From IMG/VR virus record IMGVR_UViG_3300045988_067221, positions 1 to 58,752 of that record: a DNA stretch of 58,752 nucleotides; one strand, written 5' to 3'. The position numbers and the translations under genes are program-made. Source of the DNA: a virus. This document shows positions 4,772 to 43,211 of this stretch, in pieces. The first letter of the stretch is position 1. Each line of letters opens with the position of its first letter. The notes beneath the pieces are model-generated. The model was given only the letters and a program-made list of their open reading frames with translations. It was not told the DNA's origin and searched no databases.

Positions 4772-5311
4772 ATGTTGGAAGGAGTGAAGAGGTTTGTCCG
4801 GACAATAAAGCTGGCTTTACTCCGAGATAAAATGAAAAGCCAAAAGGAACGAAGTGCGGAACTATATAAAAGCAGAAAAGAAAGCGGTCTGTGTCCTAGA
4901 TGCGGGAAACCGCTAGATAGAAATGGACATTATTGTTCTGAGTGTTTGGAAAAAGAAAGAGAATATCGCAGTGAAACAAAAAAATTTTGTAAGGAAAACG
5001 GAATTTGTCCGGTCTGCCATAAAGAAAAGTTGTATGGAGACGAGAAACAATGCATATTATGCAGAGAGTATCACTGGGAGTATGGCATAAAGAATCCACC
5101 AACCGATCAGCAGAAAGAAAAGTACAGAAACCGTTTTCGTGAGACACAAAAAAAAATATATGCAGAAAGAGTATCGAAGGGTATATGCACCAGATGCGGA
5201 AAACTAAAAGTAGTTCCAGGAAGAAAAAAGTGTGGAATCTGCCTTGAAAAAGACATGATTTTACACAGAAACAGGAGGGCTTATGAGGTCGAACTTCAGC
5301 AGACTAAGTAA
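4772..5311 (+). CDS. Multi-zinc-ribbon protein (five CxxC pairs), unknown function
   Basis: ORF track; repeated CPRCG/CSEC/CPVC/CILC/CTRCG/CGIC. Confidence 0.55.
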   Translation: MLEGVKRFVRTIKLALLRDKMKSQKERSAELYKSRKESGLCPRCGKPLDRNGHYCSECLEKEREYRSETKKFCKENGICPVCHKEKLYGDEKQCILCREYHWEYGIKNPPTDQQKEKYRNRFRETQKKIYAERVSKGICTRCGKLKVVPGRKKCGICLEKDMILHRNRRAYEVELQQTK

Positions 5312-5684
5312 GCCGGAAGTTGATCTTATAATTAAAAAAACCAATTTTACAGAAGAGGAAGAAATGATTTTCCATATGCTCTGTCGCGGAAAGAGCCTGG
5401 ATCAAATATGTTTAGAAACATTTCTTCCAAAATCTACACTATGCCGTAGGATTCATTCAATCAAAGAAAAGGTAGGAGATGATAAGGTGAAAAAGCAGGT
5501 TCCAATTTGGGAAAAAGTGACACTTACATTAGAAGAGGCTGCGGAATACAGCAACATAGGAATTAACAAAATAAGAGAGCTTTCAAATAATCCTCGATGC
5601 AATTTTGTGATTTTTGTCGGGAAAAAGCGGTTGATTAAAAGAAAAGAATTTGAGAAATACATTTCTGAGAATGTGGAATTGTAG
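5283..5684 (+). CDS. xis: Excisionase-family DNA-binding protein fused to an N-terminal sigma-r4/LuxR-like HTH
   Basis: RBS aggaggg. C-terminal ..LTLEEAAEYSNIGINKIRELSNNPRCNFVIFVGKKRLIKRKEFEKYI is Tn916-Xis/MerR-type excisionase-like. Lies directly upstream of int. Confidence 0.6.
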   Translation: MRSNFSRLSKPEVDLIIKKTNFTEEEEMIFHMLCRGKSLDQICLETFLPKSTLCRRIHSIKEKVGDDKVKKQVPIWEKVTLTLEEAAEYSNIGINKIRELSNNPRCNFVIFVGKKRLIKRKEFEKYISENVEL

Positions 5685-5756
5685 ACTTTTAGAGCCTTAT
5701 GTGATAATATAAAAAATTGCATAAGGCTTTTCTCATAAAGAAAGGAGAGGCGAAAC

Positions 5757-6887
5757 GTGGGAAAAGACTTGAAGGGAAAAGAGCTTGGTGTTGGGATTTC
5801 TCAGCAATCTGATAAATTGTATGTTGCAAGATTTACCGATAAGTTTGGAATTAGAAAAACCAAGCGATTCAAAAAATTGCAGGAATGCAGGCAATGGATT
5901 GCAGATGCAAGTTATATCAGCAAACATAGTGATATAGAAAATGCTTCTGACATACTTGTGGATACATGGTATGAATATTGGATCGGTATAAAGAAGCAAA
6001 CTGTAAGACCGAACACGGTTAGAAATTATTCCGAAAGGTATGAAAGAAATATTAAAGGAATTATAGGAAAAAAACTTCTTTCAGAAGTAAAACCAATTCA
6101 CTGCCAGAAAATTTTTTCTGATATGGCCGAGCAGGGATATAAGACTACTACAATCTATCAGACAAGGATAACTCTTTATAACATGCTTGAATTTGCAAAA
6201 GAGAATGATGTAATTTTAAGTAATCCATGTAAAAAATCTGTAAAGAGTGACATTGGGAAACCATCCGAAAAAAAAGTTGCTCTTACCATTGATGAGCAAA
6301 GAAAATTTTTAATGGCAGCGACAGGACAAAGTTATGAAAATCAATACAAATTTGTGCTTCAAACAGGGCTGAGAACAGGAGAGCTTGTAGGACTGAAGTG
6401 GAGTGATATTGATTTCGGAAAAAGAACGGTTACAATATCCAGGACGATGGAATACAGGTACAAGGTAGGAGAGTGGAGAGTTGGGCCGCCAAAAAGCAAG
6501 TCCGGTTATAGGACAATTCCTCTTACGGATGAAGCTATTAGAATCCTTAAAGATCAGAAAGAAAAGAATAGCAAAATCAAAGTTATCAATATTGAATGGA
6601 GAGATCAAGTTTTTCTTTCGAGGAAAGGGGAGCCAGTTAAAAACAGTACATATGACACTGCCTTATTTAAAATATGCGATAAAGCAGAGATAAGAAAATT
6701 TTGCATGCATATATTAAGGCATACATTTGCAACCAGATGTATTGAAGCTGGTATGATTCCGAAGACATTGCAAAAAATTCTTGGACATTCAAACATAGGG
6801 ATCACAATGAATTTGTATGTGGATGCTACAGAGGAAGAAAAAACAAAAGAGATGGATCTTGTCGCAGAAGCTCTTAAAGTAGTATAG
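5757..6887 (+). CDS. int: Tyrosine recombinase / phage integrase with N-terminal arm-binding (AP2-like) domain
   Basis: 376 aa. ..LQTGLRTGELVGLKWSDIDF.. (catalytic R box) and ..HILRHTFATRCIEAGMIPKTLQKILGHSNIGITMNLYV (HxxR..GH..Y). Confidence 0.9.
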   Translation: MGKDLKGKELGVGISQQSDKLYVARFTDKFGIRKTKRFKKLQECRQWIADASYISKHSDIENASDILVDTWYEYWIGIKKQTVRPNTVRNYSERYERNIKGIIGKKLLSEVKPIHCQKIFSDMAEQGYKTTTIYQTRITLYNMLEFAKENDVILSNPCKKSVKSDIGKPSEKKVALTIDEQRKFLMAATGQSYENQYKFVLQTGLRTGELVGLKWSDIDFGKRTVTISRTMEYRYKVGEWRVGPPKSKSGYRTIPLTDEAIRILKDQKEKNSKIKVINIEWRDQVFLSRKGEPVKNSTYDTALFKICDKAEIRKFCMHILRHTFATRCIEAGMIPKTLQKILGHSNIGITMNLYVDATEEEKTKEMDLVAEALKVV

Positions 6888-12309: not shown

Positions 12310-12504
12310 ATGCCGGAAACATTAAAGACAACAGAAGCACAGCGCAAGGCGGTATATAATTATGATGATAAATTTGAGCGCGTAAATTGTAGACTGGCTA
12401 AGGGGACAAAAGACAGAATCAAAGCACTGAAATACAGCGCAAACGATTTTATAAAATTAGCAGTTGCGGAAAAATTAGACAGGGAAGAAAAAATTTTGAA
12501 ATAA
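12310..12504 (+). CDS. Ribbon-helix-helix (Arc/CopG-like) regulator, paralog 1
   Basis: ..NYDDKFERVNCRLAKGTKDRIKAL.. has a beta-strand plus helix pattern; flanked by its own iterated boxes. Confidence 0.55.
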   Translation: MPETLKTTEAQRKAVYNYDDKFERVNCRLAKGTKDRIKALKYSANDFIKLAVAEKLDREEKILK

Positions 12505-13025: not shown

Positions 13026-13547
13026 ATGAGCACACCGGATTATATTAGACGGTCGCAGAATAACTACAACGCAAAATTCGACATTATCCAGATCAAGGCA
13101 CCGAAGGGAACAAAGGAACGTATAACAACGCTGAGCGGTCAGAGCATGGCGGCTTTCTGTTTGCAATGCGTTCTTGATCGTCTGGACGAGCTGGAAAGAT
13201 CAGAAACGGCACCGGAATATAAGCAGACAGCAAATACATCAACGGACAGCGAAAACGCAAATACAACCGCTACAGAAGCACAGACGCAAAAGAAACCGTT
13301 GACAGATGATGACGTTATGGAGATATGGCGGAAACGTGTAGCGGAAAACGAAGCCAAGAAGAAAGCAGCAGCTAACGAGATGCCACCAGAACCGGAACCG
13401 GCACAGGAAGAAGAACCGGAAGACGCGAAAGCTGTTTTCTTGCGAGAGTTAGAGCGCATAAGAGCCGGGCAGATGCCGGAGGAAAACCCAGAAAAAGAAG
13501 CGGCTAGAACTGCCAGCAAAAAGCAAGAAGAAAGCGAGGAAAAATAA
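13026..13547 (+). CDS. RHH-like regulator paralog 2 with long acidic/Pro-rich tail
   Basis: ..NYNAKFDIIQIKAPKGTKERITTL.. aligns with 12310-12504 (NYDDKFERVNCRLAKGTKDRIKAL). Confidence 0.55.
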   Translation: MSTPDYIRRSQNNYNAKFDIIQIKAPKGTKERITTLSGQSMAAFCLQCVLDRLDELERSETAPEYKQTANTSTDSENANTTATEAQTQKKPLTDDDVMEIWRKRVAENEAKKKAAANEMPPEPEPAQEEEPEDAKAVFLRELERIRAGQMPEENPEKEAARTASKKQEESEEK

Positions 13548-13924: not shown

Positions 13925-14092
13925 GTGTGTAAAAACCGGCAGTTCTCGCGCGAATAATATAAACTTTTATACAGTCTATAAGTATATATAATATATAATA
14001 CGTTTATAGATCTATGGGTCTTCTGAGGTAAGAGTAGTATATATAAATATATATAGGGCAGTATATAAGCCCGGTAGATAAATAAAACAGTA

Positions 14093-14121
14093 TTGACAAA
14101 TTGAGAGATTATGGATATTAT
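14093..14121 (+). promoter_or_regulatory. Promoter of the plus-strand late operon (TTGACA-17-TATTAT)
   Basis: ttgaca 14093-14098, tattat 14116-14121. Confidence 0.6.
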
Positions 14122-14127
14122 TATAAA

Positions 14128-14236
14128 TAACTTAAGCCGAGGCGCGCAGGTTCTCCCAGAGTCCGTAGAGGGATACAAGAGCCGATCAACGCGAGAGGAT
14201 GGACAGAGTAAGGACGGACGCAGTCAAAGAGATACA
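14128..14236 (+). promoter_or_regulatory. Leader element A (homologous to leader B at 41521-41625, minus strand)
   Basis: Shared blocks with B: ttaa.ccga, ccgt.gaggg, a.aggat.ggac, gag.aaggacgg, gaga.t.cacgctc. Confidence 0.6.
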
Positions 14237-14282
14237 CGCTCGTAGATTAGACTTTAACAGGTCTTTTCTACGGGCGTTTTTT
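14237..14282 (+). terminator. Strong intrinsic terminator closing leader A, 35 nt before terS
   Basis: cgctcgtaga (14237-14246) pairs with tctacgggcg (14267-14276), followed by tttttt. Confidence 0.8.
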
Positions 14283-14317: not shown

Positions 14318-14980
14318 ATGGAAAAAGTAAAGGATTACAAAGCGGATCCGGAAGTATTTGAAAATGACATAGACATGTATTTGCAAATCTTTTGTGAGAA
14401 TCAGAAACCGCCTATCGAGGATTTGACAAAAGCAAGCCAAAGTGTTTGGAATGCTGCACTAATGTATGTGCATAGGCATGTATTTAAAAATCGGGAATAT
14501 TTTAGAAGCACTGAAAATATACAGGCTAATAATAAAGCCCCTATCAGTAATTATTATATATATAACTATAATCTGGTAAATGATGTATGTGATTATTATA
14601 TATATTTATGCATGAAATATGAAAAAGAAATAAGTATATTAGGTTTTAGTAATTTGACAGGTATTCCAGATAGCACGTTATATGATTGGGGATACAATCC
14701 ACAGAGACAACTAAGCCGCGTTGGGTCGGAGATTTGCAAAAAGTTGCAAAAATACAACGAGGAAAGCTTGGAAAATAAACTTGCATCGGGCAAGGCTAAC
14801 CCAGTTGGAGTGATTGCAATACTTAACAGGCGGCATGGCTGGGCAAGTCCATACACAGCAGATAGCAACCGCCAGAGGTCGCAGGCATTAACGGCGGATC
14901 AGCTACCACAACTGGGACAGAAAGATCCTGTTTGTCTGCCTGAGATGGACAAAAACGACAATAGCACAGAGATAAACTAG
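14318..14980 (+). CDS. terS: Terminase small subunit candidate
   Basis: HTH-like ..ILGFSNLTGIPDSTLYDWGYNP.. and ..KANPVGVIAILNRRHGW.. are typical of TerS; first gene after the late promoter and leader. Confidence 0.6.
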   Translation: MEKVKDYKADPEVFENDIDMYLQIFCENQKPPIEDLTKASQSVWNAALMYVHRHVFKNREYFRSTENIQANNKAPISNYYIYNYNLVNDVCDYYIYLCMKYEKEISILGFSNLTGIPDSTLYDWGYNPQRQLSRVGSEICKKLQKYNEESLENKLASGKANPVGVIAILNRRHGWASPYTADSNRQRSQALTADQLPQLGQKDPVCLPEMDKNDNSTEIN

Positions 14981-15650: not shown

Positions 15651-15901
15651 TGGCAGACAATGTAAATCACCCAACGCATTATGAAACAGGAAAATTCGAG
15701 TGCATAGAAGTCATGTTGGAAACACAGGGAATTGAAGCAGTTAAAAATTTCTGTATCTGCAATGCATTTAAGTATCTTTACCGGCACTGCGGGAAGAACG
15801 GACTGGAAGACGTGAAAAAGGCAGGATGGTATATCCGAAAATACATTGAGCTGGAAGAGGGTAATGTGAATGAAGATCGGGAGCAAGGAAATCAACGATG
15901 A
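15650..15901 (+). CDS. DUF3310-like phage protein
   Basis: ..VNHPTHYETGKFECIEVM......FCICNAFKYLYR...KNG.EDVKKAGWYI. Confidence 0.7.
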   Translation: MADNVNHPTHYETGKFECIEVMLETQGIEAVKNFCICNAFKYLYRHCGKNGLEDVKKAGWYIRKYIELEEGNVNEDREQGNQR

Positions 15902-16031
15902 ATGCCAGAACTGCTCAGAAGTCCTGCAATGTGAATTGTTTCGTCAGGGGCATGGAATTGGACAGCAACGAGAAAATGTAGCTGCTATGATCGTTTGCCA
16001 ATTGGAACACCAGGGTAAGCGAAAGAAATAA

Positions 16032-16104
16032 TGGGGTATCGCCAAGCGGCTAAGGCACAGGATTTTGACTCCTGCATTCGCCGGTTCAAATCCGGCTATC
16101 TCAG
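16032..16104 (+). tRNA. tRNA-Gln (anticodon UUG)
   Basis: Hand-folded cloverleaf. Acceptor tggggta/tatctca (U1-A72 as in Firmicutes tRNA-Gln). Anticodon arm cagga-ttTTGac-tcctg. T arm gccgg-ttcaaat-ccggc. Confidence 0.85.
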
Positions 16105-16471
16105 CTAAGCGTTGATGTTGTCCTACGCTATACAAAGACAAGGTTTCAACTGGTTATGGAAGGCAAAACCATTCAAGATTCGTACCAAAAGCTAAAGCGG
16201 ATCACGATGTCATTGGTTTTCATGTGACTTCTCCTTTAAGACCCACTAGCGGAAAGCTGATTAAAGAGCCATCGCACGGCTCGGTGGGTTTTGGGTTTCG
16301 CTGCGGTAGTTACCCGTGGATTTCATCATTCCCTGTACAAAAGAATCGCAGCAGGCGGTTGTATCAAAAGTGTGGTGCCTTGGCGCAATCGTCTCAGTTC
16401 GCCGTCAACGTAAAGGCTGGCAGGTGCTTGCATATCACCTAAAATGTCATGGAGCTGACATATGCAATTCT

Positions 16472-16561
16472 GGGGAAGCGGCAACGATTGGCGGTGTTGC
16501 GGCTGACTGTAAATCAGTTCCCATGTGGTAAACAATGGAGGTTCAATTCCTCTCTTCCCCA
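16472..16561 (+). tRNA. tRNA-Tyr (anticodon GUA), class II with long variable arm
   Basis: Acceptor ggggaag/cttcccc. Anticodon arm gctga-ctGTAaa-tcagt. T arm ggagg-ttcaatt-cctct. Confidence 0.75.
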
Positions 16562-16651
16562 TTTCACTCAACTCCCTAAAAACACTGTTTGGCAGGTGCG
16601 TGGTAGACAGTCGTAATGGATGGGTTGTTTAAGAAATTGCACCATCAAGAT

Positions 16652-16737
16652 GCAGTGTTCCCATAATGGTATTGGAGCCGGTTGCTATCCGGTCGGGCGG
16701 AATATCCGCTTTGCAGGTTCAAGTCCTGCACACTGCG
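16652..16737 (+). tRNA. tRNA-Ser (anticodon GCU), class II
   Basis: Acceptor gcagtgt/acactgc. Anticodon arm gccgg-ttGCTat-ccggt. Long variable arm. T arm gcagg-ttcaagt-cctgc. Confidence 0.8.
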
Positions 16738-16741
16738 TTTT

Positions 16742-16833
16742 GCCAACGTACCGAAATGGTTATAACGGCGCTGTCTTGAAAACAGATGTGCTATGGAGAA
16801 CATGGCTTGTGGGTTCAAATCCTACCGTTGGCG
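16742..16833 (+). tRNA. tRNA-Ser (anticodon UGA), class II
   Basis: Acceptor gccaacg/cgttggc. Anticodon loop ctTGAaa. Long variable arm. T arm gtggg-ttcaaat-cctac. Confidence 0.75.
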
Positions 16834-16997
16834 TTTCCCTTCAGCAACACGACAGGCTCATGTTGATGTTGTAAATAACTTGATCTGTGAGTAGAGAATA
16901 GACATGCCGGTGATATGAGCTAGTCCGGGACTTACAGATTATATCCTTGAAGTTGCGGTTATAGTGCACAGCTGCACCGGGTTTATAGAGGATATAT

Positions 16998-19073: not shown

Positions 19074-20852
19074 TTGCTTTTTGAAAGTGGAGGTGCTTTT
19101 CTATTGGCAAGTTCAAGCCTGATTTCCACGATAAACGGATATGAAAATTACATAGAGAGAAAAGGGATAGATGAACAGGTTATTGACGCATACATACAAG
19201 CCGTAGCTGTAGCATTAAGAACAGAACATGATATTGATTATGGGTTAAAAGTATCAGAAAGGGCAAAACGGCTTATAGCTCAATTTGTTAAAGAACATAC
19301 AGGTAAAGGAATTGCAAATTTAGAGGTTTATGCAAGCGAACATGATACGACATACAAAGTGCTTCAACAATTTTATGATGTTTTAATGTATGAATCTGCC
19401 TATTTGGTCGATAGTTTTTTCTATTACATCGAAATAGATGAAAAAGATCCATGGAAGAGATTTTATTTTCCCAGAAGAGAAGTCTTGAAACCGGTAGTAG
19501 GAGCATATCAGGAAATTTATGACGGAAAACTAGATTTTCTTTCTGTTTCACAGCCAAAACGTACCGGGAAAACAACCGGAGGATTAAAACTGGCACAGAT
19601 GATGGGTGGGAGAGATCCGGACGGGAGTATTTTTGGTGTTGGAAAAGGAGAAGGACTAGTAAAGAGGTTTTATGGTGGACTTTTACAAGGTTTTGAGACA
19701 GAAAGCACATACAAAAGATTTTTAAGCGTTTTTCCTGAAGCAACAAAAATCAGCAAAGATGGTTATAAAAGTGCGGAGAATCTTTCAATAGACCTTAAAA
19801 GCAAAAATATTTTTCCGACATTTACTTGCAGACCTATTGATGGTGCAATCGTAGGATGTACAGAAGCAAATGTTCTTGTCTATATTGATGACTGCGTAAA
19901 GAATCACGAGGAGGCAAGAAATAGAGACAGATTAGAGTTCCTGTGTGAAAAGGTTACAGACGATGTTCTTGGACGAAGGCTAGAGGGCACACCTATTATT
20001 ATTCAGGGCACAAAATACAGCCTATATGACCCTATTACAGCGTTACAGACCAAGGCTGATGAACTTGGCTGGAGATGGAGAGAAGTTGCGGTTCCGGCAT
20101 TGGATCCAATAACGGACGAAAGCAACTGGGAAATCTATCGTAAGGATAAAAAAGGGTTGCGAAAGATATTCACAACGGATTATTACCGAAAAGAGCGAAA
20201 ACTTGTATCTGAAGAAACATGGGCTGCAGAGTTCCAACAGGAACCATTCGAAGCCAAAGGTCGTATGTTTGCAGAAAATGAACTGAATTATTTTGAGGAA
20301 CTTCCAGTAGACAGAGAACCAGACGCAATCATGGCAGCCTGTGATAGCGCAGACAAAGGAGAAGATAGCTGCTCAATGCCTATCGGTTATGTGTACGGAA
20401 ATGAGGTCTACATAGTAGATGTTGTGTTTGATAATGCAGGAACCCAGTTTACTAAACCAGAATGCGCAAATATGCTGGTTAAACATAACGTAAAGACTGT
20501 GACATTCGAGAGCAACAGTGCCGGAGAATACTTCGGCCGTGATGTAATGGAACTTGTAAAGGAACAGGGTGGAAGATGCAGTGCGAGGTTCAAGTTTAAT
20601 TGTACGAACAAAATAACGAGAATGGAAAATGCAAGAGATAACATCATTCGTGATTATTATTTTCGTGATTTCAAAAAAATGGATAGAAAAAGCCAGTATT
20701 ACAAGTTTATGAAAGAACTTACAACCATGACGAGAAGCGGGAAAGTAACGCACGATGACGCGCCGGACTCTATTTCATTGTTCGAGAACGAAATGAGAAC
20801 AGGGGTCGTGGCAAAAGCAGAAGCAGCAATAAACCCATTTAGGAGGATGTAA
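19074..20852 (+). CDS. terL: Terminase large subunit
   Basis: ~590 aa; Walker-A-like SQPKRTGKTT; ..VLVYIDDCVKNHEEA..; C-terminal nuclease-like half; precedes the portal. True start uncertain (TTG 19104 after ggaggtg, or ATG 19140). Confidence 0.8.
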   Translation: MLFESGGAFLLASSSLISTINGYENYIERKGIDEQVIDAYIQAVAVALRTEHDIDYGLKVSERAKRLIAQFVKEHTGKGIANLEVYASEHDTTYKVLQQFYDVLMYESAYLVDSFFYYIEIDEKDPWKRFYFPRREVLKPVVGAYQEIYDGKLDFLSVSQPKRTGKTTGGLKLAQMMGGRDPDGSIFGVGKGEGLVKRFYGGLLQGFETESTYKRFLSVFPEATKISKDGYKSAENLSIDLKSKNIFPTFTCRPIDGAIVGCTEANVLVYIDDCVKNHEEARNRDRLEFLCEKVTDDVLGRRLEGTPIIIQGTKYSLYDPITALQTKADELGWRWREVAVPALDPITDESNWEIYRKDKKGLRKIFTTDYYRKERKLVSEETWAAEFQQEPFEAKGRMFAENELNYFEELPVDREPDAIMAACDSADKGEDSCSMPIGYVYGNEVYIVDVVFDNAGTQFTKPECANMLVKHNVKTVTFESNSAGEYFGRDVMELVKEQGGRCSARFKFNCTNKITRMENARDNIIRDYYFRDFKKMDRKSQYYKFMKELTTMTRSGKVTHDDAPDSISLFENEMRTGVVAKAEAAINPFRRM

Positions 20853-21378: not shown

Positions 21379-21413
21379 GAGCATTGCTGGAAACGGCAGT
21401 GCTCTTTTCTTTT
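21379..21413 (+). terminator. Intrinsic terminator inside the late operon
   Basis: gagcattgc (21379-21387) pairs with gcagtgctc (21396-21404), followed by ttttctttt. Confidence 0.7.
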
Positions 21414-21431
21414 GCAGAAATGAGGAAAAAC

Positions 21432-21629
21432 ATGGAGCACAAACCAAAAACAATATATTGTCCCAGGTGTGGCAGGAAAGTTGCTACATGGGACGGACGT
21501 TCTTCTATGCCAGTAATTGGCAGATGTAAGAAGTGCAATAAACGAGTTGTCTATTACGTGGACAATGGAGAGACAGAAATTAAAGACATCCCGCAGAGGA
21601 ATTGTTCTTCCGGGGTTACTTATATGTAG
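21432..21629 (+). CDS. Mu Com-like zinc-finger protein
   Basis: MEHKPKTIYCPRCGRKVATW....IGRCKKCNKRVVY; ATG at 21432 within ORF 21384-21629. Confidence 0.45.
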   Translation: MEHKPKTIYCPRCGRKVATWDGRSSMPVIGRCKKCNKRVVYYVDNGETEIKDIPQRNCSSGVTYM

Positions 21630-27441: not shown

Positions 27442-27832
27442 TGGTAATCAATGGGCATTTGACATTGATACAAATGTGTTCTCAAAAATCTATGCTCAGC
27501 TTCATGAGAAGTACCCAAAAGCTCTTATCACTCGTGATGAGCAGTCGAGCACCACACCTACATTCCCAACGATTCTTATACAGGCATTAGAGCCGGTAGA
27601 ACTGAATCCAGATATGGAAACGCAGATCAATAGCGTGCTGTTTAGCACACAGATCAAAGTAACTACAAACAAAGACAGAAGTACAGCCATGAGCATAGCA
27701 AGCGAAGTGGCAAAGCGTTATAAGGATTTATCGTTTCAGTTAATCGGAATGCCTTATTGCCGGAAAGAAGATAAGCTGTGGTCAGCTACCTTCCGGGCAA
27801 GAAGAACGTTCGATTGGAACGACAGATTATAA
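27434..27832 (+). CDS. Tail completion/terminator-like protein
   Basis: ATG at 27434 overlaps the upstream stop; position before the major tail gene. Confidence 0.45.
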   Translation: MASGNQWAFDIDTNVFSKIYAQLHEKYPKALITRDEQSSTTPTFPTILIQALEPVELNPDMETQINSVLFSTQIKVTTNKDRSTAMSIASEVAKRYKDLSFQLIGMPYCRKEDKLWSATFRARRTFDWNDRL

Positions 27833-27857
27833 AGAGCAGCAATGCTCTTATTTTTTT
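27833..27857 (+). terminator. Hairpin plus T-run just before the major tail gene
   Basis: agagca-gcaa-tgctct followed by tattttttt. Confidence 0.6.
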
Positions 27858-28382: not shown

Positions 28383-28530
28383 GCCAGTACGCTAAAAGCA
28401 GAAAAGCCGTGGTGACTGGCTACGATGACAAAACGGCTGAGTCGGAAGTTGATATGTGGTAAAGGTGAAATGTGGGGCGGTCTACGAACTGCCCCCTTTC
28501 CTATAACAGATTCATGGAAAGGGAAAAGAA

Positions 28531-30073: not shown

Positions 30074-30199
30074 TTTTAGTCTGATTTTATGGGGCAGTAG
30101 GTGTCAAAGCTTACTGCCCTTTTTTGCTTATAACGAGCAACCTGACACCGTTTTAGGTGTTCGCTAACCATTTAAAAACTAATGGTGGAGGTGAAATAA

Positions 30200-33100
30200 A
30201 TGGCAGCAACCACGATTGATGATCTTCAGATCAAGATTGAAGCGGATGCGAAAACTGCTTCTGATAAGCTGGATGCACTTGCTCAAAGCATGGTGAAACT
30301 GGCATCAAGCCTAAGCATCAACGTTGGCAAGATGTCTGGTGTTGCTATTGGACTTAATAGCATTACCAGAGCTTCACAGAATCTCAATTCCAGAAATATA
30401 ACAACACTGGCAACTGCTATGGGGAAAGTAGCAGGTGTGGATTCTGCTCAAATTTCCAGAGTAGCTGGTTCTATGACGCAGCTAAAAAACAGCGTTTCTG
30501 GCGGTTTTAACACCGATATGACCGGAATAGTGAATGTAGCTAATTCACTGTCAAAACTGGGCGGTACAAAGGCTACACAAGGTGCGCAGAACCTTGTTCT
30601 CATAAAAGATCAGCTTGCTCAATTTGTGCAAGGCATGAACAGCGTAGGAACATTTACGTTTGACCCTACTGGGCTGACCAACACAATTAAAGCTATTGCG
30701 AAGCTGGGCGGAAAGACAGCAACGCAGGCAATGGCAAATCTTCCGAGCATTTCTGCTCAGTTACAGAATTTTGTCCGGCAAATGAACCAGATCGGCTCTA
30801 TGTCGTTTGACAACAAGAATTTAACCGACCTTGTAACGTCCATAGGCAGGCTAGGAAGTGTTGCAAGTGGGCGAGCGGTAAATAATATACCTTTGCTTGC
30901 AAACAACCTTAAATACCTGTTTGAGACGCTCTCAAAAGCACCATACATCAGCCAGAACATTATCCAGATGACCACGGCACTGGCTAATCTGGCACGTACA
31001 GGAGCATCTAGTGGTACTGCGGCAAGATCACTTGGGACAAGTCTTTTCTCATTCTCGAAATCTGCCGGTAACGCAAGAAAGAGTGCATTTTCTTTGGCAG
31101 GTGCAATCGGTAAGTTTTACGCAACTTACTGGATGGTCATTAGAGGACTTGGACTTTTTCGTGATGCTATTGACATCTCATCCGATTTAACAGAGGTTGA
31201 GAACGTTGTCCGTACCACGTTCGGAAATATGGAGTACAAGGTTAATGACTTTGTGCAGAACTCCATTCAGCAGTTCGGTATGTCTGAGCTTTCCGTTAAG
31301 CAGTATGCCAGTACGTTCCAGGCTATGGGAACTGCTATGGATGTCGGCGGCAAACAGATCGAGAAAGCAAACAGCTTTTTAAGTGGTGCTACGGATGGAT
31401 ATGTCGGATTGTCAGATTCTATGTCCGATGTGTCTTTGAATCTTACTAAACTGACGGCGGATATGGCATCTTTCTACGACAAAGATCAGGCAGATGTTGC
31501 CAAAGACCTGCAATCTGTATTCACCGGAATGGTAGTTCCGCTACGTAAATATGGACTTGATCTGACGCAGGCTACTCTGAAAGAGTGGGCAATGAAGAAC
31601 GGTATGGATGCTGATATTAAGTCCATGACGCAGGCAGAAAAGGCAATGCTGCGGTATCAGTACGTCCTAGCAAATACCACGGCAGCGCAAGGGGACTTCT
31701 CCAGGACAGCCGATACATGGGCGAACCAAGTACGAATTTTGAAACAGAACTTCCAGCAGTTAGGCGGCATTATTGGTGGTGCGCTGATTAACGCATTCAA
31801 ACCGTTTTTACGGACTCTGAATTTTGTTATGCAGAAGGTAATCAGCTTTGCCACAACCGTAACAAATGCCCTTGGTGCAATCTTCGGTTGGAAATTTGAA
31901 GTGTCCGGCGGTGGTGTGGTTGACGACTGGTCAGATGCGGCAAGTTCAGCTGATGATCTGGCAGACAGTACCGGTAAAGCAGCTGACAATACAAAGAAGA
32001 TGAAGAACAATCTTCATGCACTGGATGAGTTGAATATTAACAATGGTTATGATAACGGAACAGGTTCCGGCGGTTCTGGTTCCGGTGCAGGTGGCGCAGG
32101 TGGCGGTGCTGGCTCTGGTGGTCTGGTTAAGACAGACACTATCTGGAAAGATTTTGAAAGTAATATCAAAGACCTGTATCAGTTGGGCGAGTATATCCGT
32201 GATGCACTTATCGGTGCAATGGAAAGTATTGACTGGGATAGTGTATATGAGAAAGCAAGAAACTTTGGTACTGGTCTGGCAGAGTTTCTTAATGGACTTT
32301 TTGCTGGATCTAACGGAATTACTCTGTTTGGAGAAGTTGGAAAAACTATTGCGAGCGCATTAAATACGGTAGTTTATGCGGCGCTGTCATTTGGCAAAGA
32401 ATTTAATTTTGAACAGTTTGGATACAACATAGCTGATGGAATCAATAACTTTTTTGCTACTTTTGACTTTGCAGCATTGGCAGAAACCTTGAATACTTGG
32501 GCAAATGGAATACTAAAAGTTGCAAGCGAATCTATTACAAATATAGATTGGAAAAAAGTATTTGAAGGTGTTGGAAACGTAGTTTTTAATCTGGATGCAT
32601 CTGCTATTGTTGAAGTTGCTTTACTCTCATTGACTTGGAAAAACAAAACGCAAATTCTTAAAACCGCAGGCACGACTTTGCTAAATATTTTTACTGGAGG
32701 TATTACACTTACAAAGGTATTAGTCAGCCTTAAAAAAATAAGTTTTGCTCTTCCTGGGACACCTGCATTTGATGTTGTCGCTACTAGCATATTAGATACT
32801 ATTGGAGAATGCATCAAAAACTTAATTCCAGATTGGGCAAACAGAGCTTTAAGCAGAATTGGAGCTGGCTTGGTTGCTGGAGCTGTTGGTGGATCATGGT
32901 TTCCTGGAGTAGGCACAATTGCAGGAGCAATTATTGGAGCAATTACTGGTGCGATATCTGCAATAGAAATTGACGGGCAAGGTATCCTCAAAATTATTTT
33001 TGACAAAATTTTTAATTTTGATTTGACATCTTCGATGTTCGATTCTGCAAGAGAAAATTTTGCAAAAGGTGGTATAAATATTGTTCTTGGTATCATTGAC

Positions 33101-36564: not shown

Positions 36565-38799
36565 TTACAACACCGCCTTCCTTGCTTTTAATGATCCGCT
36601 CCATGTACCAGTAAACTTTAATTCGTTCTGATAAGCACGCACCATTGTATTTTCTCTGTTTTTTAGCTCTAAAAAGAAAAGATCGTTTGCATCAGTCCTC
36701 GGATCTCCGTTCCATGATATTTCATATTCCACATCACCCAAATAGTATGTAGACAACCATTTTTCAATGTCCACAGCCATTTCTAATGAGCTTACCAGAG
36801 GATTTTTCCATGTTTTTTCGGTTCCTGTCTGATTGTGAATTTTTGAATATGTTTGCGTATCTTGTAAATATTCTTGCCCACTTACAGAAATCCTCACTTT
36901 TTCTCCTACGTTTCCGACAATATTTACTTTTACAAAATAGCTGCTGCTATCAATGATTGACACTGTTGTATTAGCAGATTCCGTGGATACTGAGAATCCG
37001 TAAGAAGCTTTTGCAAGATATACTGTATACTCCTGTGTTGCTGATTCTAAAAGCACCTCTTCCGATGAAAGCTCTTTTATGGCTTCTAGATTTTCTTTAT
37101 AAAGCGTTCTTTCTACGGATATAGATTTTATTCTTTCTTGCCGTGTTTCTCTTGGAGAAGTAGAAAGATTAAAGTCTCTGGATAAAACGTAATCCGTTGA
37201 ATCTCCAAATATAATATTGTCTATCGTTACTCTGGCATTTGGATGCCCTTTCGTAAACTCAATTTCTACTTTGTCGAATCGGTCTAATTGCCCAAGATAT
37301 CCTTGCTGTAATTCTGGATTTGACACGGTGTATTCTAATACAGTTGTTCCCAAGTAAGAAGTTTTTACTGAGTATTCTGCCGGAGCAACATTCCTAAAAT
37401 AAATCATCATTCCGTAGCAGATATATCCTGATTCTAATGTGATTGTTATTTTCGGATTATTTTGGAAATCTCCGTTCTCATTAGCCAATTCGCTGCTTAC
37501 ATATCCTATATTTTCGATGTATTCGCCATTTTCTGGTAGAAATTTTAAAGTCCCGTTCACAGAAGAAAAATCGTTACTTCCCATTGCATATGCTTCTTTT
37601 TGACTGTAACTAAGTATGTTTTGAGACCTGCTAAACTCGGTTTCTCCGTTCGTTTCTGCTGTCATATCAGGGACAAAAGATGATTTGATGTTAATTCGCC
37701 CTTTCCGATCCACGCTTAAAACACAACGTCCGGCATTAGATATAATCTGTAATGCTTCAGAATGCTTTACTGCCGGAACAGGATTGCATACGATTACGCT
37801 TTTCAAATATTCGTCTATATAGTATTCCTCATCCTTCATTCCGGCATCTGTGAAAACATCGACAGCCAAGTCATATAAAGATATTCCGCTGTTCCGATAT
37901 AAACCATTGTAATACATGGTATTTAACTTCCAGTAAAACACATCAACCATGGTAAATTCTGCTTGTACATCGTTTGCGCTCCATGACTTAAGGTATGTAG
38001 TAATTTCTGGAACCCATTCAATATCACCTTTTCCAGTTACATCGTATCCAAACGTGACTTTCATTTCCTGCCCTTGTTCGAGATATGCAATAGCTGATTC
38101 AGAATTTTCAGGACTGTAATATAGGTTCTGGTTATCCACAACAATGGTCATGTCTTGGCTTGGTACAGATTCACAAATAGGAGATACAAAATCTTTATAA
38201 GAAAAAGATTTGACCTCGTTATTTGAGAAAGTATTGGAAATTCCGCAGGTAAACTGTAAAATCCGCATTCGTCCCTGCCCATTAACCATGGCCAGCGGTG
38301 TTATCCGCAGGAACGTCACCGCATCGAATGTGTCCTCAGTAACAAATACGTTTCCTGAGTTTTCATAGGTCTTCGTTCCATTATCTGACTTGATTGTAAA
38401 AGATGTTGGGTAATATTCTCCAAAGTTAATAGTGAGTCCTTTAATATCAGCAAAGTTTCCAACAAAAGAGATATATATTGATTCCAAAAGTCCAGAAGTT
38501 ACCATTCCGTTGTTATAAAAATCATAATCAGAATATTCTTCCGGCAAAAAATACATTGTCCCATTAACTTTAGAAAAATCTTGCTCCATAGTTGCATATA
38601 TTTTCTTTGCGGTATTGTCCTTGAAAGGAGCGGTATTGTTTGCAAAATAAGCAAAATCATTATTGCTATCATCCGCAATTATATTTTCTGTAGCAATTGA
38701 ACTGACAATTCCAATTCTGGCAGATATATACCCTCGGTTCCTGAATGGCTTCTTCATTGCGTCTTTGTATTCTTTACTTACATTTTGCATGTTAATCAC
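36565..38799 (-). CDS. Large tail-tip/baseplate structural protein (Tal-like)
   Basis: 744 aa; position between the Dit-position gene and the fibres. GTG start at 38799 or ATG at 38790. Confidence 0.55.
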   Translation of the reverse strand: MINMQNVSKEYKDAMKKPFRNRGYISARIGIVSSIATENIIADDSNNDFAYFANNTAPFKDNTAKKIYATMEQDFSKVNGTMYFLPEEYSDYDFYNNGMVTSGLLESIYISFVGNFADIKGLTINFGEYYPTSFTIKSDNGTKTYENSGNVFVTEDTFDAVTFLRITPLAMVNGQGRMRILQFTCGISNTFSNNEVKSFSYKDFVSPICESVPSQDMTIVVDNQNLYYSPENSESAIAYLEQGQEMKVTFGYDVTGKGDIEWVPEITTYLKSWSANDVQAEFTMVDVFYWKLNTMYYNGLYRNSGISLYDLAVDVFTDAGMKDEEYYIDEYLKSVIVCNPVPAVKHSEALQIISNAGRCVLSVDRKGRINIKSSFVPDMTAETNGETEFSRSQNILSYSQKEAYAMGSNDFSSVNGTLKFLPENGEYIENIGYVSSELANENGDFQNNPKITITLESGYICYGMMIYFRNVAPAEYSVKTSYLGTTVLEYTVSNPELQQGYLGQLDRFDKVEIEFTKGHPNARVTIDNIIFGDSTDYVLSRDFNLSTSPRETRQERIKSISVERTLYKENLEAIKELSSEEVLLESATQEYTVYLAKASYGFSVSTESANTTVSIIDSSSYFVKVNIVGNVGEKVRISVSGQEYLQDTQTYSKIHNQTGTEKTWKNPLVSSLEMAVDIEKWLSTYYLGDVEYEISWNGDPRTDANDLFFLELKNRENTMVRAYQNELKFTGTWSGSLKARKAVL

Positions 38800-39789: not shown

Positions 39790-40632
39790 CTATTCTATCA
39801 ATTTCGCTTTTAAATTCCGGCGGATATAGCCGGACATAAAGTGGGACAGGCTCTTTTCTATGCCATCCCGGTAGTTCGTTTGCATGTACATATCAATTAG
39901 CGGAATATACTGGTCTAGCGTCCACACATCATCCATGATTCCATATTCGTCCTCATCCTGATGCAGGTAGTTGTATACGATATTGCTAATAGCCGGTCGT
40001 GTGAGTGGCTTATGCGGCTTGCCTTGCGTTCTGGCATATTCGCTTACAAAGTATTCAGCTATGTCCTTCAACTCGGCTCTATAGCCGCTATCTGGAGATT
40101 CTCCTTCTTCCGTCATTGCCTCGTCAATAGCTTTTGTGACCGTAGGAGATAACGTACCACCTTCAGATGTGGGAGAGACCTCTTTTTCCGCAGAAAAAGA
40201 GCATACTCCCATACTTTTATTTTCTTGTTTATTTTCTTTTTTAGTATTTTGTATGTTAGTATTTAATTGTGCGGGCATATCCAACATTGGTTCATCCTGT
40301 GTTGGATATTCCAACTTAGGTGAATCCGACTTAGGCTCTACAGGCTTTTGATAGACGGTATAAACCGTTCCACCAAGTGTACCGTTTTTATTTCTTTCCC
40401 GCTCTCTGGTAACATATCCACTGTTTATAAGCTCTGTCAAAGAACTTCTAACTTTGTCTTTTCCTTCTTTGACAATTTTTGTAAGTCCTTCCACTGTATA
40501 ATTCCAGTTATCCGGAAGACTCAACATCGTTATGAGTAATCCTTTAGCAGATAACGATATTTCCTTATTTTTGAGAATTTCATTTGGAATTGTCGTGAAA
40601 TTCTGTGTCAGTTTTACTACTACTTTTGCCAT
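39790..40632 (-). CDS. Winged-helix replication-initiator/replisome-organiser-like protein
   Basis: ..FTTIPNEILKNKEISLSAKGLLITMLSLPDNWNYTVEGLTKIV.EGKDKVRSSLTELINSGYV. Confidence 0.5.
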   Translation of the reverse strand: MAKVVVKLTQNFTTIPNEILKNKEISLSAKGLLITMLSLPDNWNYTVEGLTKIVKEGKDKVRSSLTELINSGYVTRERERNKNGTLGGTVYTVYQKPVEPKSDSPKLEYPTQDEPMLDMPAQLNTNIQNTKKENKQENKSMGVCSFSAEKEVSPTSEGGTLSPTVTKAIDEAMTEEGESPDSGYRAELKDIAEYFVSEYARTQGKPHKPLTRPAISNIVYNYLHQDEDEYGIMDDVWTLDQYIPLIDMYMQTNYRDGIEKSLSHFMSGYIRRNLKAKLIE

Positions 40633-40783: not shown

Positions 40784-41431
40784 TTATACGGCCTGTAACA
40801 AGGCATTGTTTTCATTCAAGAATTTCTTAATTTGGTCATATCCCCAACCACACCCGATGAGTCCGCTGACAAGCATTTCTTTTGACTGAACTATTCTTAA
40901 ATCCTCTTCGCTGAAAAAGTCTCTCAAATTTGCTTTATCGTCTACTCCATACTCTTCCTGGAGCTGTTTTGCATTTTTACCAAATACGGCTTTGTAGATT
41001 ACATTTGTATATGTGGAGTAGGCATGACCATGCATCCGATCATTTTCTTCTGATTGTTTCAAAGTATTGGTAAGAGCCTGCCGGACTGCAATGCCTTTTT
41101 CTCTTTCTCGGATTTTTCCGATAAGAGCTTTTTCCATTGCGTTAAACTGGCGAATATATGCTTCTTTGAACTGCATAGCCTTTTCACCGGTATACCCCAT
41201 TGCCAATAACGTAAAGCCGTCTCTGGTCATAATAAACATTGATTGATTATGCCCTTGTTCATTCGCATATTTCGACTGCACGAAATTGTGCAATCGAAAA
41301 TCCTCACTGCATTTCAGCTCACGTATGTCCTGCAAAACCCTACGATGTTCCTTTCCGAACGTTTCTGCCACATCAAGACTCGTTACTGTCGCGACTTCTT
41401 CTTTCTGGATTTTTGAGATCTCAACTAACAT
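40784..41431 (-). CDS. Rha-family phage regulatory protein
   Basis: ..VTSLDVAETFGKEHRRVLQDIREL.........NQSMFIMTRDGFTLLAMGYTGEKAMQFKEAYIRQFNAME. Confidence 0.75.
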   Translation of the reverse strand: MLVEISKIQKEEVATVTSLDVAETFGKEHRRVLQDIRELKCSEDFRLHNFVQSKYANEQGHNQSMFIMTRDGFTLLAMGYTGEKAMQFKEAYIRQFNAMEKALIGKIREREKGIAVRQALTNTLKQSEENDRMHGHAYSTYTNVIYKAVFGKNAKQLQEEYGVDDKANLRDFFSEEDLRIVQSKEMLVSGLIGCGWGYDQIKKFLNENNALLQAV

Positions 41432-41474
41432 ATACCATCCTCCTGTGATATTTATTGTTCGTTTTCAGACAAAC

Positions 41475-41520
41475 AAAAAACGCCCACCAGACACAGTATC
41501 TCTACCATGTCCAGTGAGCG
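41475..41520 (-). terminator. Strong intrinsic terminator closing leader B
   Basis: Minus strand: cgctcactggac pairs with gtctggtgggcg (12 bp including G-U pairs), followed by tttttt. Confidence 0.8.
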
Positions 41521-41625
41521 TGATTCTCAAAATGTTTGCCGTCCTTGCTCGGTTCGTCCTATCCTTTGCGCCCCGTTCTCCCCTCAACGGCAAGCCGGGC
41601 GGAGCTGGCGGATTCGGTTAAATTT
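41521..41625 (-). promoter_or_regulatory. Leader element B (homologous to leader A at 14128-14236)
   Basis: Minus strand: ttaaccgaatcc..ccgttgaggggaga..caaaggataggacgaaccgagcaaggacggcaaac..gagaatcacgctc. Confidence 0.6.
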
Positions 41626-41631
41626 TCTTAT

Positions 41632-41660
41632 ATTATAACATTTTTTCTTCTTTATATCAA
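41632..41660 (-). promoter_or_regulatory. Promoter (TTGATA-17-TATAAT) driving leader B and the Rha gene
   Basis: Minus strand: ttgata (41660-41655), tataat (41637-41632). Confidence 0.6.
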
Positions 41661-41664
41661 GAAG

Positions 41665-42429
41665 TTATTGGTCGATTACTAATGCAACATAACCGATTAC
41701 ATTATCAATGTCAGATTCGGAGCACCTGAATCTGCTATCCCGGATGCTCAGATATTCGTAGTGACCGTTGCCACATGAATGCCGTCTGACAATGAAAACG
41801 TTATCACCATAAATGATAACACTGTCTTCGGATGGTTTTGGATACCGGTCGTTTGCGATCAGAAGAATGTCATATGGAGTGTAGTGAGGCATATAGTGAT
41901 CCACGGAGGTTTTTATACCCATAAAAATTTGCGGTTTGATATTTTGCGGAATATCGGTGATATCAATGGATTCAAAATCACTGGAAATATGTAGCGTGCC
42001 GTCCGGGTGCTCTTCCAGATTCATGACAGGGACAGTCTTGCGTCCTTGCCTGAAACCGCCATTGGAAAGCTCATATTGACGATGGATAAACCAACGGATA
42101 AAATACTGGTAGTGCTCAGGCATTTCACGGAACATGGATATGCAATCCATATTTTCTTCTGAAAAAGTATCCAGACCGATCAGCTCATCGAGAGTTACAC
42201 CGATAGCTTTTGCTAAGAGGGCAGCAGTGGATAGCTTGCAATCTTTTGAGTTCTGGTACAACAGATTTTTAAGCGTGTCAAATGAAATACCAGCGGATTC
42301 AGCCAGCTCATGAATGGTAATGTCTGAATACTTTAAGCAAACATCCAAATTGTGACGTAAATTTGCTGTTAAGACGGCATTATCTCTGGTAAAATATTCT
42401 GATAATTCATACAAGTTTTCTTTTTTCAT
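41665..42429 (-). CDS. HTH (XRE) repressor-like protein with LexA/S24-like C-terminal half
   Basis: ..ITIHELAESAGISFDTLKNLLYQNSKDCKLSTAALLAKAIGVTLDELI.. plus a beta-rich C-terminus. Confidence 0.55.
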   Translation of the reverse strand: MKKENLYELSEYFTRDNAVLTANLRHNLDVCLKYSDITIHELAESAGISFDTLKNLLYQNSKDCKLSTAALLAKAIGVTLDELIGLDTFSEENMDCISMFREMPEHYQYFIRWFIHRQYELSNGGFRQGRKTVPVMNLEEHPDGTLHISSDFESIDITDIPQNIKPQIFMGIKTSVDHYMPHYTPYDILLIANDRYPKPSEDSVIIYGDNVFIVRRHSCGNGHYEYLSIRDSRFRCSESDIDNVIGYVALVIDQ

Positions 42430-42806: not shown

Positions 42807-42844
42807 AAGACAAGGGATTGCGCATGTCCCTTGTCTTTCTTTTT
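42807..42844. terminator. Bidirectional terminator
   Basis: aagacaaggga-ttgcgcatg-tcccttgtctt with T-runs on both strands. Confidence 0.75.
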
Positions 42845-43211
42845 ACTTGTTCTTCTCGGCTATTGAGTCGATCAGCTTTTCAAGCACTCCCCACTCGGAT
42901 TCGTCCAGTTTTGATAATGCGGATACAAGCCTACGTTTGAAGCTATCTTCATCAGTTTTTAAGACTTCTCCGATCAAGTCACCGATCTGTTCATCTTTGC
43001 TTTTCTTAACGAACATTTCCCCTTCACCAGTTCGTAGCCAATTTTCATTAACTTCAAATTGTTTGCAAATCAATGCAACTGCTGCATCACTGGGAATGCT
43101 TCTGCCCATTTCGTATGTGGCAACTGTATTTCTTTTTACTTTCACAGCGTCAGCAAATTCCTGCTGAGTCAATCCGAGAGCATTGCGAATTTCTTTTATT
43201 CTCTCATGCAT
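42843..43211 (-). CDS. XRE-family HTH repressor (CI-like)
   Basis: MHERIKEIRNALGLTQQEFADAVKVKRNTVATYEMGRSIPSD..; divergent from a consensus promoter. Confidence 0.8.
   Translation of the reverse strand: MHERIKEIRNALGLTQQEFADAVKVKRNTVATYEMGRSIPSDAAVALICKQFEVNENWLRTGEGEMFVKKSKDEQIGDLIGEVLKTDEDSFKRRLVSALSKLDESEWGVLEKLIDSIAEKNK

Follow-up and report, generated by a model that had tools for sequence, protein, structure and literature searches.

In phage lambda, loading of the antiterminator Q depends on a DNA site and on a sigma-dependent pause, and no conserved fold is known for the 6S RNA. The put element of phage HK022 is an RNA of about 70 nucleotides (nt), made of two stem-loops and no pseudoknot. 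Interchangeable recognition modules are a feature of both the Q/qut and the N/nut types. We know of very few structurally defined antitermination RNAs (put, EAR, conAn2 and canT) and of little on late-gene timing in temperate phages of gut Clostridia. The late regulators so far characterised in Gram-positive phages, of the RinA/ArpU/LtrC type, bind DNA and act as activators (PMC3753634), and neither conAn2 (260-600 bp) nor canT (340-450 nt) has a defined consensus fold (PMC8191782, PMC11658703). Here we describe an element of the IMG/VR virus record IMGVR_UViG_3300045988_067221, all 58,752 nt of which we call the window. The element consists of a promoter, a structured leader and a terminator, and is present twice. 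Copy A heads the packaging/late operon directly before terS, a small-terminase-like gene; copy B, on the opposite strand, precedes an operon that begins with an Rha/anti-repressor-like gene. We conclude that the leader is a real, conserved, previously uncharacterised phage leader RNA family.

A sequence-only reading had proposed that the two copies are homologous. Their local alignment scored 28, against 15.8 +/- 2.2 for 1000 shuffles (z 5.2-5.6); the best shuffle scored 28 when the terminator was part of the sequence and 26 when it was left out. The homology is settled by outside family members, which patterns and a covariance model detected (see below). Both leaders folded more stably than dinucleotide shuffles (z -2.4 for A and -3.0 for B), and that of copy A is GC-rich. 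Two blocks picked out earlier as shared coincide with structure: ttaa.ccga includes helix P0, and ccgt.gaggg covers the pseudoknot 5' strand and the P3 3' strand. Another shared block, aaggacgg, is the invariant tail plus the pseudoknot 3' strand. The proposed architecture at the head of the late operon was borne out, as were the near-consensus promoters (each 11/12 with a 17-bp spacer) and the 35 nt that separate the end of the T-run of terminator A from the terS ATG at 14318. The terminators do end in T6, but their stems have 17 and 19 pairs, not the 10 and 12 first assigned.

How widespread is the leader? A pattern of 18 specified bases, drawn from the sequence block common to the two copies, matched 18 viral contigs of IMG/VR. 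A second pattern, GAGYAAGGACGG...CACGCTC, gave 100 stretches, of which 65, in about 20 sequence types, were genuine after removal of high-GC coding matches. The covariance model built from the leader (R1) scored 81 members at 30-96 bits in the fetched DNA, exactly two of them within the window. Altogether, gut-phage contigs of IMG/VR hold at least 85 instances of the family; a further copy lies in a Eubacterium ramulus prophage (GCA_977050415.1) and indicates that the hosts include gut Clostridia. One variant carries a GACGCUC arm (L283), and a diverged subtype with GAGCAGGGACGG was seen in three loci (L552, L569 and L574) and in the E. ramulus prophage. Pattern scans of genomes and metagenomes contributed one genome copy (L390) and two metagenome copies (L408 and L420) as the genuine ones among the matches listed; because high-GC coding matches dominated these scans, the distribution beyond IMG/VR is under-sampled.

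The family appears to be new. Rfam 15 (4227 models, including riboswitches, leaders and phage RNAs), run on the whole window at the gathering threshold, returned tRNAs and an int-alpA RNA only. At E<=10, the two elements drew only spurious matches far below threshold (microRNA, small nucleolar RNA, a hepatitis C virus stem-loop), and a match to the S15 leader reached 12.8 bits against a threshold of 39.5; the earlier failure to place the element in a known riboswitch class thus holds. Copy A, copy B and one genome member had no BLAST match in 50,697 GenBank phage records. We found no published description of the leader RNA, though a catalogue of some 10,000 candidate viral structured RNAs (PMC10690425) might list the motif without a function. 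A and B both have what defines the family: P0-P1-P2-P3 with a pseudoknot, GAGYA(A/G)GGACGG, a linker of 14-23 nt, and a long terminator whose base is CGCUC/GGGCG.

Pair counts from 54 distinct sequences describe a fold of about 90 nt, with four stacked helices and a pseudoknot between the P3 loop and the tail. P0 is two pairs, CC/GG (CG:38, UA:5, UG:5). P1 (4-6 pairs) and P2 (6-7 pairs) show changes on both sides in 6/6 columns each; P1, for example, occurs as AUCC/GGAU, AUCAC/GUGAU, GUUCCG/CGGGAC and GCGUUG/CAACGC. P3 is CCC/GGG, with the variants CCG/CGG and CCGC/GUGG. In the pseudoknot, the P3 loop (nGCCGu) pairs with ACGGCn right after the invariant GAGYAAGGA, and column 36-100 reads GC:44, AU:5, UA:5. 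GAGYAAGGACGG is nearly invariant, as is the terminator base CGCUC/GGGCG.

Standard pairs filled 86.8% of cells versus 71.6% in column shuffles, 18 of the 23 pairs changed on both sides, and the covariation score was 0.400 against 0.150 in shuffles (0/500 reached it) and 0.036-0.086 with partners slid by 1-3 columns, all on an alignment that was fitted to the model and so is biased towards it. Independently, RNAalifold on a plain MAFFT alignment recovered P0, P1 and part of P2. A mutual-information scan ranked the assigned pairs first and, searched for extra helices, gave assigned helices only; P0 was contributed by RNAalifold. G.U pairs are frequent (UG:34 at columns 24-57) and occur on the element's own strand only. 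Compensatory changes together with strand-specific G.U pairs indicate an RNA rather than a DNA element, and support the leader as a selected RNA structure. Might the element nevertheless act as DNA, as a pac/cos site or a protein operator by terS, or be a chance resemblance? It does adjoin terS, a common location of packaging sites. However, the pairing evidence points to RNA, the second copy lies far from terS on the opposite strand, and 81 scoring homologs speak against chance. We regard this explanation as hardly credible.

The whole module is kept, not only the fold. In 24 family representatives, the hexamers and spacing of promoter A were found again: of the 12 sigma-A consensus positions, 8-11 are matched (mostly 10-11), most promoters have a 17-bp spacer, and in most representatives 81-85 nt separate the -10 from the invariant block. 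RNA domains A and B begin 8-9 nt past the -10, and P0 would start about 9 nt into the transcript, whose first base in copy A we place at ~14128. Between the invariant CGG and the CACGCUC of the terminator lies an unconserved linker of 14-23 nt (17 nt in copy A). Terminator stems number 15-25 pairs, with energies of -22 to -34 kcal/mol, and lead into U5-7; intrinsic terminators usually have 7-9-bp stems (PMC10325885). The terminator base, (A)CGCUC.../...GGGCG(U) with a U.G wobble, is conserved in sequence, and the remaining stem is variable. Searches anchored elsewhere in the motif found no member without GAGYAAGGACGG or the terminator arm/GGGCG base. Elements always point towards the downstream gene, ~35 nt off (~35-45 nt from terminator to first gene for copies A and B).

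Which genes lie behind the leader? Homologs of the window terS directly follow 57 of 85 members, and both bacterial-genome instances, L390 and L777 (Eubacterium ramulus), lie upstream of terS homologs. These homologs diverge to 24-28% identity with the RNA core unchanged. The remaining, copy-B-like members precede Rha/Ant-like genes, int-alpA RNA, DnaD-like genes or homologs of a 744-residue open reading frame (ORF), and in several related phages the int-alpA RNA directly follows a copy-B-type terminator. One copy of each kind, 20-27 kb apart, was present in at least 13 IMG/VR contigs as well as in the window, hence in at least 14 genomes. None of the 85 instances stands ahead of metabolic or transport genes.

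We then considered a sample of 78 loci chosen by terS homology alone, using a close terS set. In all 78, terS is preceded by a near-consensus promoter, then a leader and, ~30 nt from the gene, a strong terminator; the leaders fall into three classes. Class I, the pseudoknot leader, accounts for 23 loci, or ~29% of this unbiased sample of one large terS family. Class II (44-45 loci) has a leader of ~25 nt (AAUUAAUAAGCNNAUGCCGG) and a long terminator; a pattern search for it gave 91 stretches, with no contig represented twice among the 80 matches listed. Class III (9 loci) has a different leader of ~110 nt with GCGCCC...CAAGGCAAGAGGGCGC. The class II and III leaders were noticed in IMG/VR loci L542-L605 and L606-L696, upstream of terS homologs. 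The same layout with swapped leaders is as expected for a termination/antitermination gate with a phage-specific recognition part. In Dulem virus 39 (L404; PP511791.1, lemur gut), positions 1240-1465 show, with a terS 32% identical, a TTGACA-17-TATAAT promoter, a structured-looking leader of ~150 nt that holds CAAGGAC and GCCGU, and then a possible weak terminator-like hairpin; the class-I covariance model found no match in this leader.

The compact pseudoknot resembles an aptamer. Perhaps it is a riboswitch, sensing a host alarmone, a second messenger or a phage-made nucleotide and deciding late and replication expression? An HLout-type pseudoknot with ~25 invariant unpaired nt followed by a terminator is the usual riboswitch layout, invariance over divergent phages suits a chemical ligand, and genes for a MazG-like pyrophosphatase and a DUF3310 protein lie 1-2 kb downstream in 26 and 17 class-I loci, respectively. 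A riboswitch should, however, fold its aptamer at the expense of the terminator. When we compared the terminator 5' arm with the leader by RNAduplex, the best partners were non-homologous between types, so that no alternative pairing is conserved, and the non-conserved linker lies between the two structures. Pairing of the P3 loop with the terminator arm, GGAGCCGUG : CACGCUC, was rejected as a switch: it is confined to types F, I, K and M and missing in both window copies. The gene context is neither metabolic nor transport-related, the two genome instances included, and no riboswitch in Rfam is similar. We consider a riboswitch very unlikely. Of the three forms that the sequence-only reading had offered, a small-molecule switch is the least favoured, given the lack of conserved alternative pairing between domain and terminator and the exclusively phage-operon context. 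A qut-type DNA site leaves the RNA covariation unexplained, and a nut- or put-like RNA fits best.

How, then, would the operons be expressed? A promoter scan of the + strand found, besides promoter A, none between terminator A and the terS ATG, and the 35-nt gap there holds the ribosome-binding site. With no promoter space between terminator and start codon, and with upstream transcripts meeting the same terminator, we infer, soundly in our view, that operon expression would need read-through. This bears on a further explanation, that the terminated transcript of ~150 nt is itself the product, a trans-acting small RNA or a protein-sequestering RNA made constitutively in lysogens. Strong promoter, structured RNA and an efficient terminator, conserved at its stem base and ending in a U-tail, together amount to a complete small-RNA gene, and there is precedent in Shiga toxin (Stx) phages, whose short PR' transcript, StxS, terminated at tR', is a regulatory RNA (PMC7547250). 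Against such a product, the downstream operons have no other promoter, so read-through must happen; the element is always oriented with a downstream gene ~35 nt away; and no target complementarity was identified. Such a role would be compatible with a gate function. As the explanation of the element, it is decidedly unlikely.

Our preferred reading, held tentatively and at somewhat less than an even chance, is a termination gate that is closed by default and that antitermination opens, the pseudoknot serving as a nut/put-like recognition element. The transcript would begin at a strong, constitutive-looking sigma-A promoter, and its first ~100 nt would fold into a coaxial stack of P0-P1-P2-P3, the P3 loop pairing with the tail immediately past GAGYAAGGA. 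By default, the long-stem terminator 14-23 nt on would release an RNA of ~150 nt and leave the operon silent. In the lytic phase, polymerase that had transcribed the leader would read through. A putative factor, phage-encoded or a host one recruited by the phage, would recognise the pseudoknot and probably also the conserved terminator base. Copy A would gate the packaging/morphogenesis operon from terS onward and copy B the convergent Rha-replication operon; with copies gating both, one signal would turn both on. Judged from sequence, the two leaders probably admit transcription to these operons only in lytic growth. The sequences show the promoter and terminator signals, the fold, the membership of the family, the genes behind the leaders and a layout that related phages share; we infer that read-through is conditional and that a factor exists. 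In the absence of conserved alternative pairing, read-through would most likely come about through a factor that recognises the pseudoknot or through a direct effect of the RNA on polymerase.

The latter route amounts to a cis-acting antiterminator that needs no factor, as in HK022 put, Bacillus EAR or Tn916 canT. Here the nascent pseudoknot would make host polymerase resistant to terminators; regulation would lie at the promoters, and the adjacent terminator would halt only polymerases started elsewhere. The two opposite-strand copies, each right behind a strong promoter, recall putL and putR, the motif keeps a fixed distance from the -10 in all lineages, and an invariant core over very divergent phages suits a target in the host that is itself conserved, for instance RNA polymerase. 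The search for a conserved partner among phage proteins gave none, and hairpins within the late operon (e.g. 30091-30120), like the int-alpA hairpin with its U-run, would need passing by a processive mechanism. However, a terminator fused right behind a constitutive antiterminator would regulate nothing, and read-through transcripts from upstream would carry the RNA too. A sequence-conserved terminator base is unexpected for a processive mechanism blind to terminators, and stems of 15-25 bp are of the sort reported to resist one: stems of at least 14 bp resisted conAn processive antitermination (PMC10325885). Four stacked helices with a pseudoknot are also unlike the two stem-loops of put. We consider this factor-independent antiterminator, the main rival, unlikely. 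The factor-dependent gate is favoured by this lack of regulation, by the conserved terminator base, which suggests sequence-specific recognition, and by the position of copy B past the repressor-side genes, which calls for a terminator closed in the lysogen.

We looked for a trans partner in the window. A 53-residue Cys/His protein (15870-16031, +) with invariant C12, C15, C21, H28, C43 and H47 and a CELFRQGHGI motif was present in 30/34 class-I loci and 0/91 class-II loci; it has no Pfam or PHROG family and occurs in at least 459 IMG/VR loci. The RNA lay within 4 kb in only 7/80 of the protein's own loci, and we rejected it as a specific partner; the class-I correlation is attributable to physical linkage within the terS-MazG block. 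Two other proteins, at 12310-12504 and 13026-13547 (+), no more than 1.8 kb upstream of the late promoter, share an N-terminus (...F/Y-D-x-I-x-I-x-x-PKGTKE...) that by eye is ribbon-helix-helix-like; they belong to PHROG families of unknown function, with nothing above threshold in Pfam. The PKGTKE motif was found in 12/30 class-I loci, and homologs of 12310-12504 lie upstream of terS in 24 class-I loci and in 71/91 class-II loci, equally common in class II. Hence, these proteins were rejected as class-I-specific partners; they may be general late-promoter regulators. None of the candidate regulators named in the sequence-only reading showed a specific link to the leader: 20852-21268 matches PHROG 36, 'transcriptional regulator', 21384-21629 encodes a zinc-ribbon protein, and the product of 5283-5684 is a Tn916-type excisionase.

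Several points weigh against a factor-dependent gate. PHROG and Pfam scans of the ~70 ORFs found no Q, N or NusG-like protein, although remote homologs could escape them, and the Cys/His protein failed as described. About 25 nt stay invariant while terS diverges to 24% identity, and such a core is more readily explained by a conserved host target or a small ligand than by a phage protein that evolves fast. Moreover, class II passes similar terminators without a pseudoknot, and the RNA may thus not be central to the mechanism. It is worth stating the bolder alternative, which we think doubtful but not negligible: the pseudoknot may need no phage protein at all, being either a Gram-positive counterpart of put that acts on host polymerase or a phage-borne small-molecule sensor. 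If true, a protein-free pseudoknot sets the moment at which a temperate gut phage opens the operons for replication and packaging, and the invariant core marks a conserved docking surface or a ligand.

Table 1. Coordinates of the two leader copies and of associated features in the window.
Feature	Position	Strand	Remarks
Copy A, whole element	14093-14282	+	promoter, structured leader, terminator
Promoter A	14093..14121	+	-35 TTGACA 14093-14098; 17-bp spacer; -10 TATTAT 14116-14121; 11/12 match
Structured RNA domain A	14130..14221	+	covariance-model score 76.7 bits
Domain A helices	P0 14137-14138/14197-14198; P1 14143-14146/14190-14193; P2 14149-14154/14178-14183; P3 14155-14157/14170-14172	+
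Domain A pseudoknot	14161-14166/14214-14219	+
Domain A invariant GAGUAAGGACGG	14206-14217	+
A-rich linker portion, copy A	14222..14234	+	not conserved
Terminator A	14235..14282	+	conserved 5' arm CACGCUC 14235-14241; hairpin 14236-14277, 17 pairs with internal loop, -24.9 kcal/mol; U-tract 14277-14282 (T6)
terS, small-terminase-like, 220 aa	14318..14980	+	first gene behind copy A; Pfam GP3_package, E 1e-5, a weak match under the curated cut-off
Large terminase gene	at 19074		late operon
Late operon behind copy A	14.3 -> 35.3 kb	+
Copy B, whole element	41660-41474	-	same three-part layout as copy A
Promoter B	41632..41660	-	-35 TTGATA 41660-41655; 17-bp spacer; TG-extended -10 TATAAT 41637-41632; 11/12 match
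Structured RNA domain B	41535..41624	-	covariance-model score 84.4 bits
Domain B helices	P0 41617-41616/41559-41558; P1 41613-41610/41564-41561; P2 41605-41600/41575-41570; P3 41599-41597/41583-41581	-
Domain B pseudoknot	41592-41587/41542-41537	-
Domain B invariant GAGCAAGGACGG	41550-41539	-
Terminator B	41474..41522	-	CACGCUC 41522-41516; hairpin 41521-41480, 19 pairs, -28.6 kcal/mol; U-tract 41479-41474
Rha/anti-repressor-like regulator gene	40784..41431	-	first gene behind copy B
int-alpA RNA (Rfam RF02996)	40728-40660	-	51.7 bits; after the Rha gene, ahead of the DnaD-like gene
DnaD-like replication gene	39790-40632	-	copy B operon
744-aa ORF	36565-38799	-	copy B operon; function unknown, phrog_13879
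Convergent operon behind copy B	41.4 -> 35.5 kb	-
CI-like gene and helix-turn-helix (HTH) gene	42843-43211 and 41665-42429	-	directly upstream of copy B, same strand
Early operon	43277 -> 58.7 kb, continuing 1 -> 13.7 kb	+	perfect-consensus promoter

The surroundings of the two copies (Table 1) offer some further observations. AT-rich TATATA/ATATAA repeats at 13960-14075 (+) lie immediately 5' of the late promoter, and a like stretch precedes class-II promoters; they may be an UP element or a regulator-binding array. Between terS and the large terminase gene, terL, four tRNA genes (Gln-UUG, Tyr-GUA, Ser-GCU and Ser-UGA) occupy 16032-16834 (+), beside MazG-like and DUF3310 genes. Strong terminator-like hairpins occur within the late operon at 27832-27849, 28474-28495 and 30091-30120 (+), the last a 12-pair stem with T6 shortly ahead of a 1417-aa ORF at 30200. 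Such hairpins would require read-through or yield graded expression.

On the other strand, copy B lies directly downstream of the CI-like and HTH genes, and terminator B would thus also halt transcription coming from these lysogeny genes. A 13-mer that the cI-early intergenic region has in common with the stretch 5' of promoter B is coding on both sides (VALVI), and we ruled it out as an operator. In the int-alpA RNA, the P1 stem and U-run resemble one more terminator. Between the Rha gene and this RNA, a tRNA-like minihelix (40790-40735, -) encloses a perfect T-arm GGAGGUUCGAUUCCUCC within an acceptor-like stem AAGCAGUC/GGCUGCUU; this minihelix may be the 3' fragment of a tRNA, att-like, or else belong to a larger structured leader. 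Midway through the early region, at 5283-6887 (+), are the genes of the Tn916-type excisionase (PF09035) and of a tyrosine integrase, which puts the attachment site probably near 6.9-7.2 kb.

If the gate is confirmed, it would add one more structurally defined antitermination RNA and give a handle on its partner, whether polymerase, host factor, phage protein or ligand. It would also mark the starts of late operons in uncultured phage genomes. Three swappable leader classes before homologous terS genes form a natural comparison set for dissecting recognition, and the module (promoter, 90-nt pseudoknot, long terminator) is compact and portable, a testable entry to late-gene timing.

How does the leader compare with known systems? 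Like lambda PR'-6S RNA-tR' under Q, copy A has a strong, constitutive-looking promoter and an early terminator directly before the packaging/late operon, would by default yield a short terminated RNA, and has interchangeable versions in related phages. Three features set it apart. A Q-family gene, usually upstream of the late promoter, was not among the ~70 ORFs in the PHROG and Pfam scans; Q/qut control acts through DNA and would be expected to place no constraint on RNA structure, whereas this leader covaries strongly; and a second copy of the leader would govern a non-late operon. HK022 putL and putR are likewise two related structured RNAs on opposite strands, each behind a major operon promoter, with no recognisable protein partner, and the core described here would be compatible with binding host polymerase. 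Compared by consensus structure, the leader lacks the ~70-nt form of put, two stem-loops with conserved bulges. Furthermore, put sites are not known to be fused to a sequence-conserved terminator, and they belong to an enterobacterial lambdoid phage, not to gut phages of Clostridia.

In lambda N/nut, too, an RNA site near the operon start recruits a factor, and the sites vary between related phages. By the nut consensus, the leader has no boxA (CGCUCUUA-like) with boxB and a downstream N gene: no 5-bp hairpin of boxB type, with a GNRA-like loop, occurs between promoter and terminator, CGCUC of the terminator arm resembles only the first five bases of lambda boxA, within a stem and without the U-rich part, and the genes behind the leader are terS or Rha, not N-like. 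EAR (eps operon), conAn2 (pLS20) and canT (Tn916) are cis-acting leader RNAs of Bacillota, belonging to mobile elements or long operons, that let polymerase pass terminators by the same insulator logic (PMC8191782, PMC11658703). Neither conAn2 nor canT is promoter-proximal with a dedicated adjacent terminator, and EAR, if in the Rfam library, gave no match at E<=10. HLout-pseudoknot riboswitches share the loop-to-3'-tail pseudoknot, the invariant joining nucleotides and the intrinsic terminator that follows; they differ from this leader, which has no overlapping expression platform, occurs only in phage contexts, matches no riboswitch model, and shows neither aptamer folding exclusive with the terminator nor genes of ligand metabolism or transport. 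By the defining structural and genetic features tested, the leader belongs to none of these systems. We conclude that it is a new RNA family, yet one whose type of control is already known.

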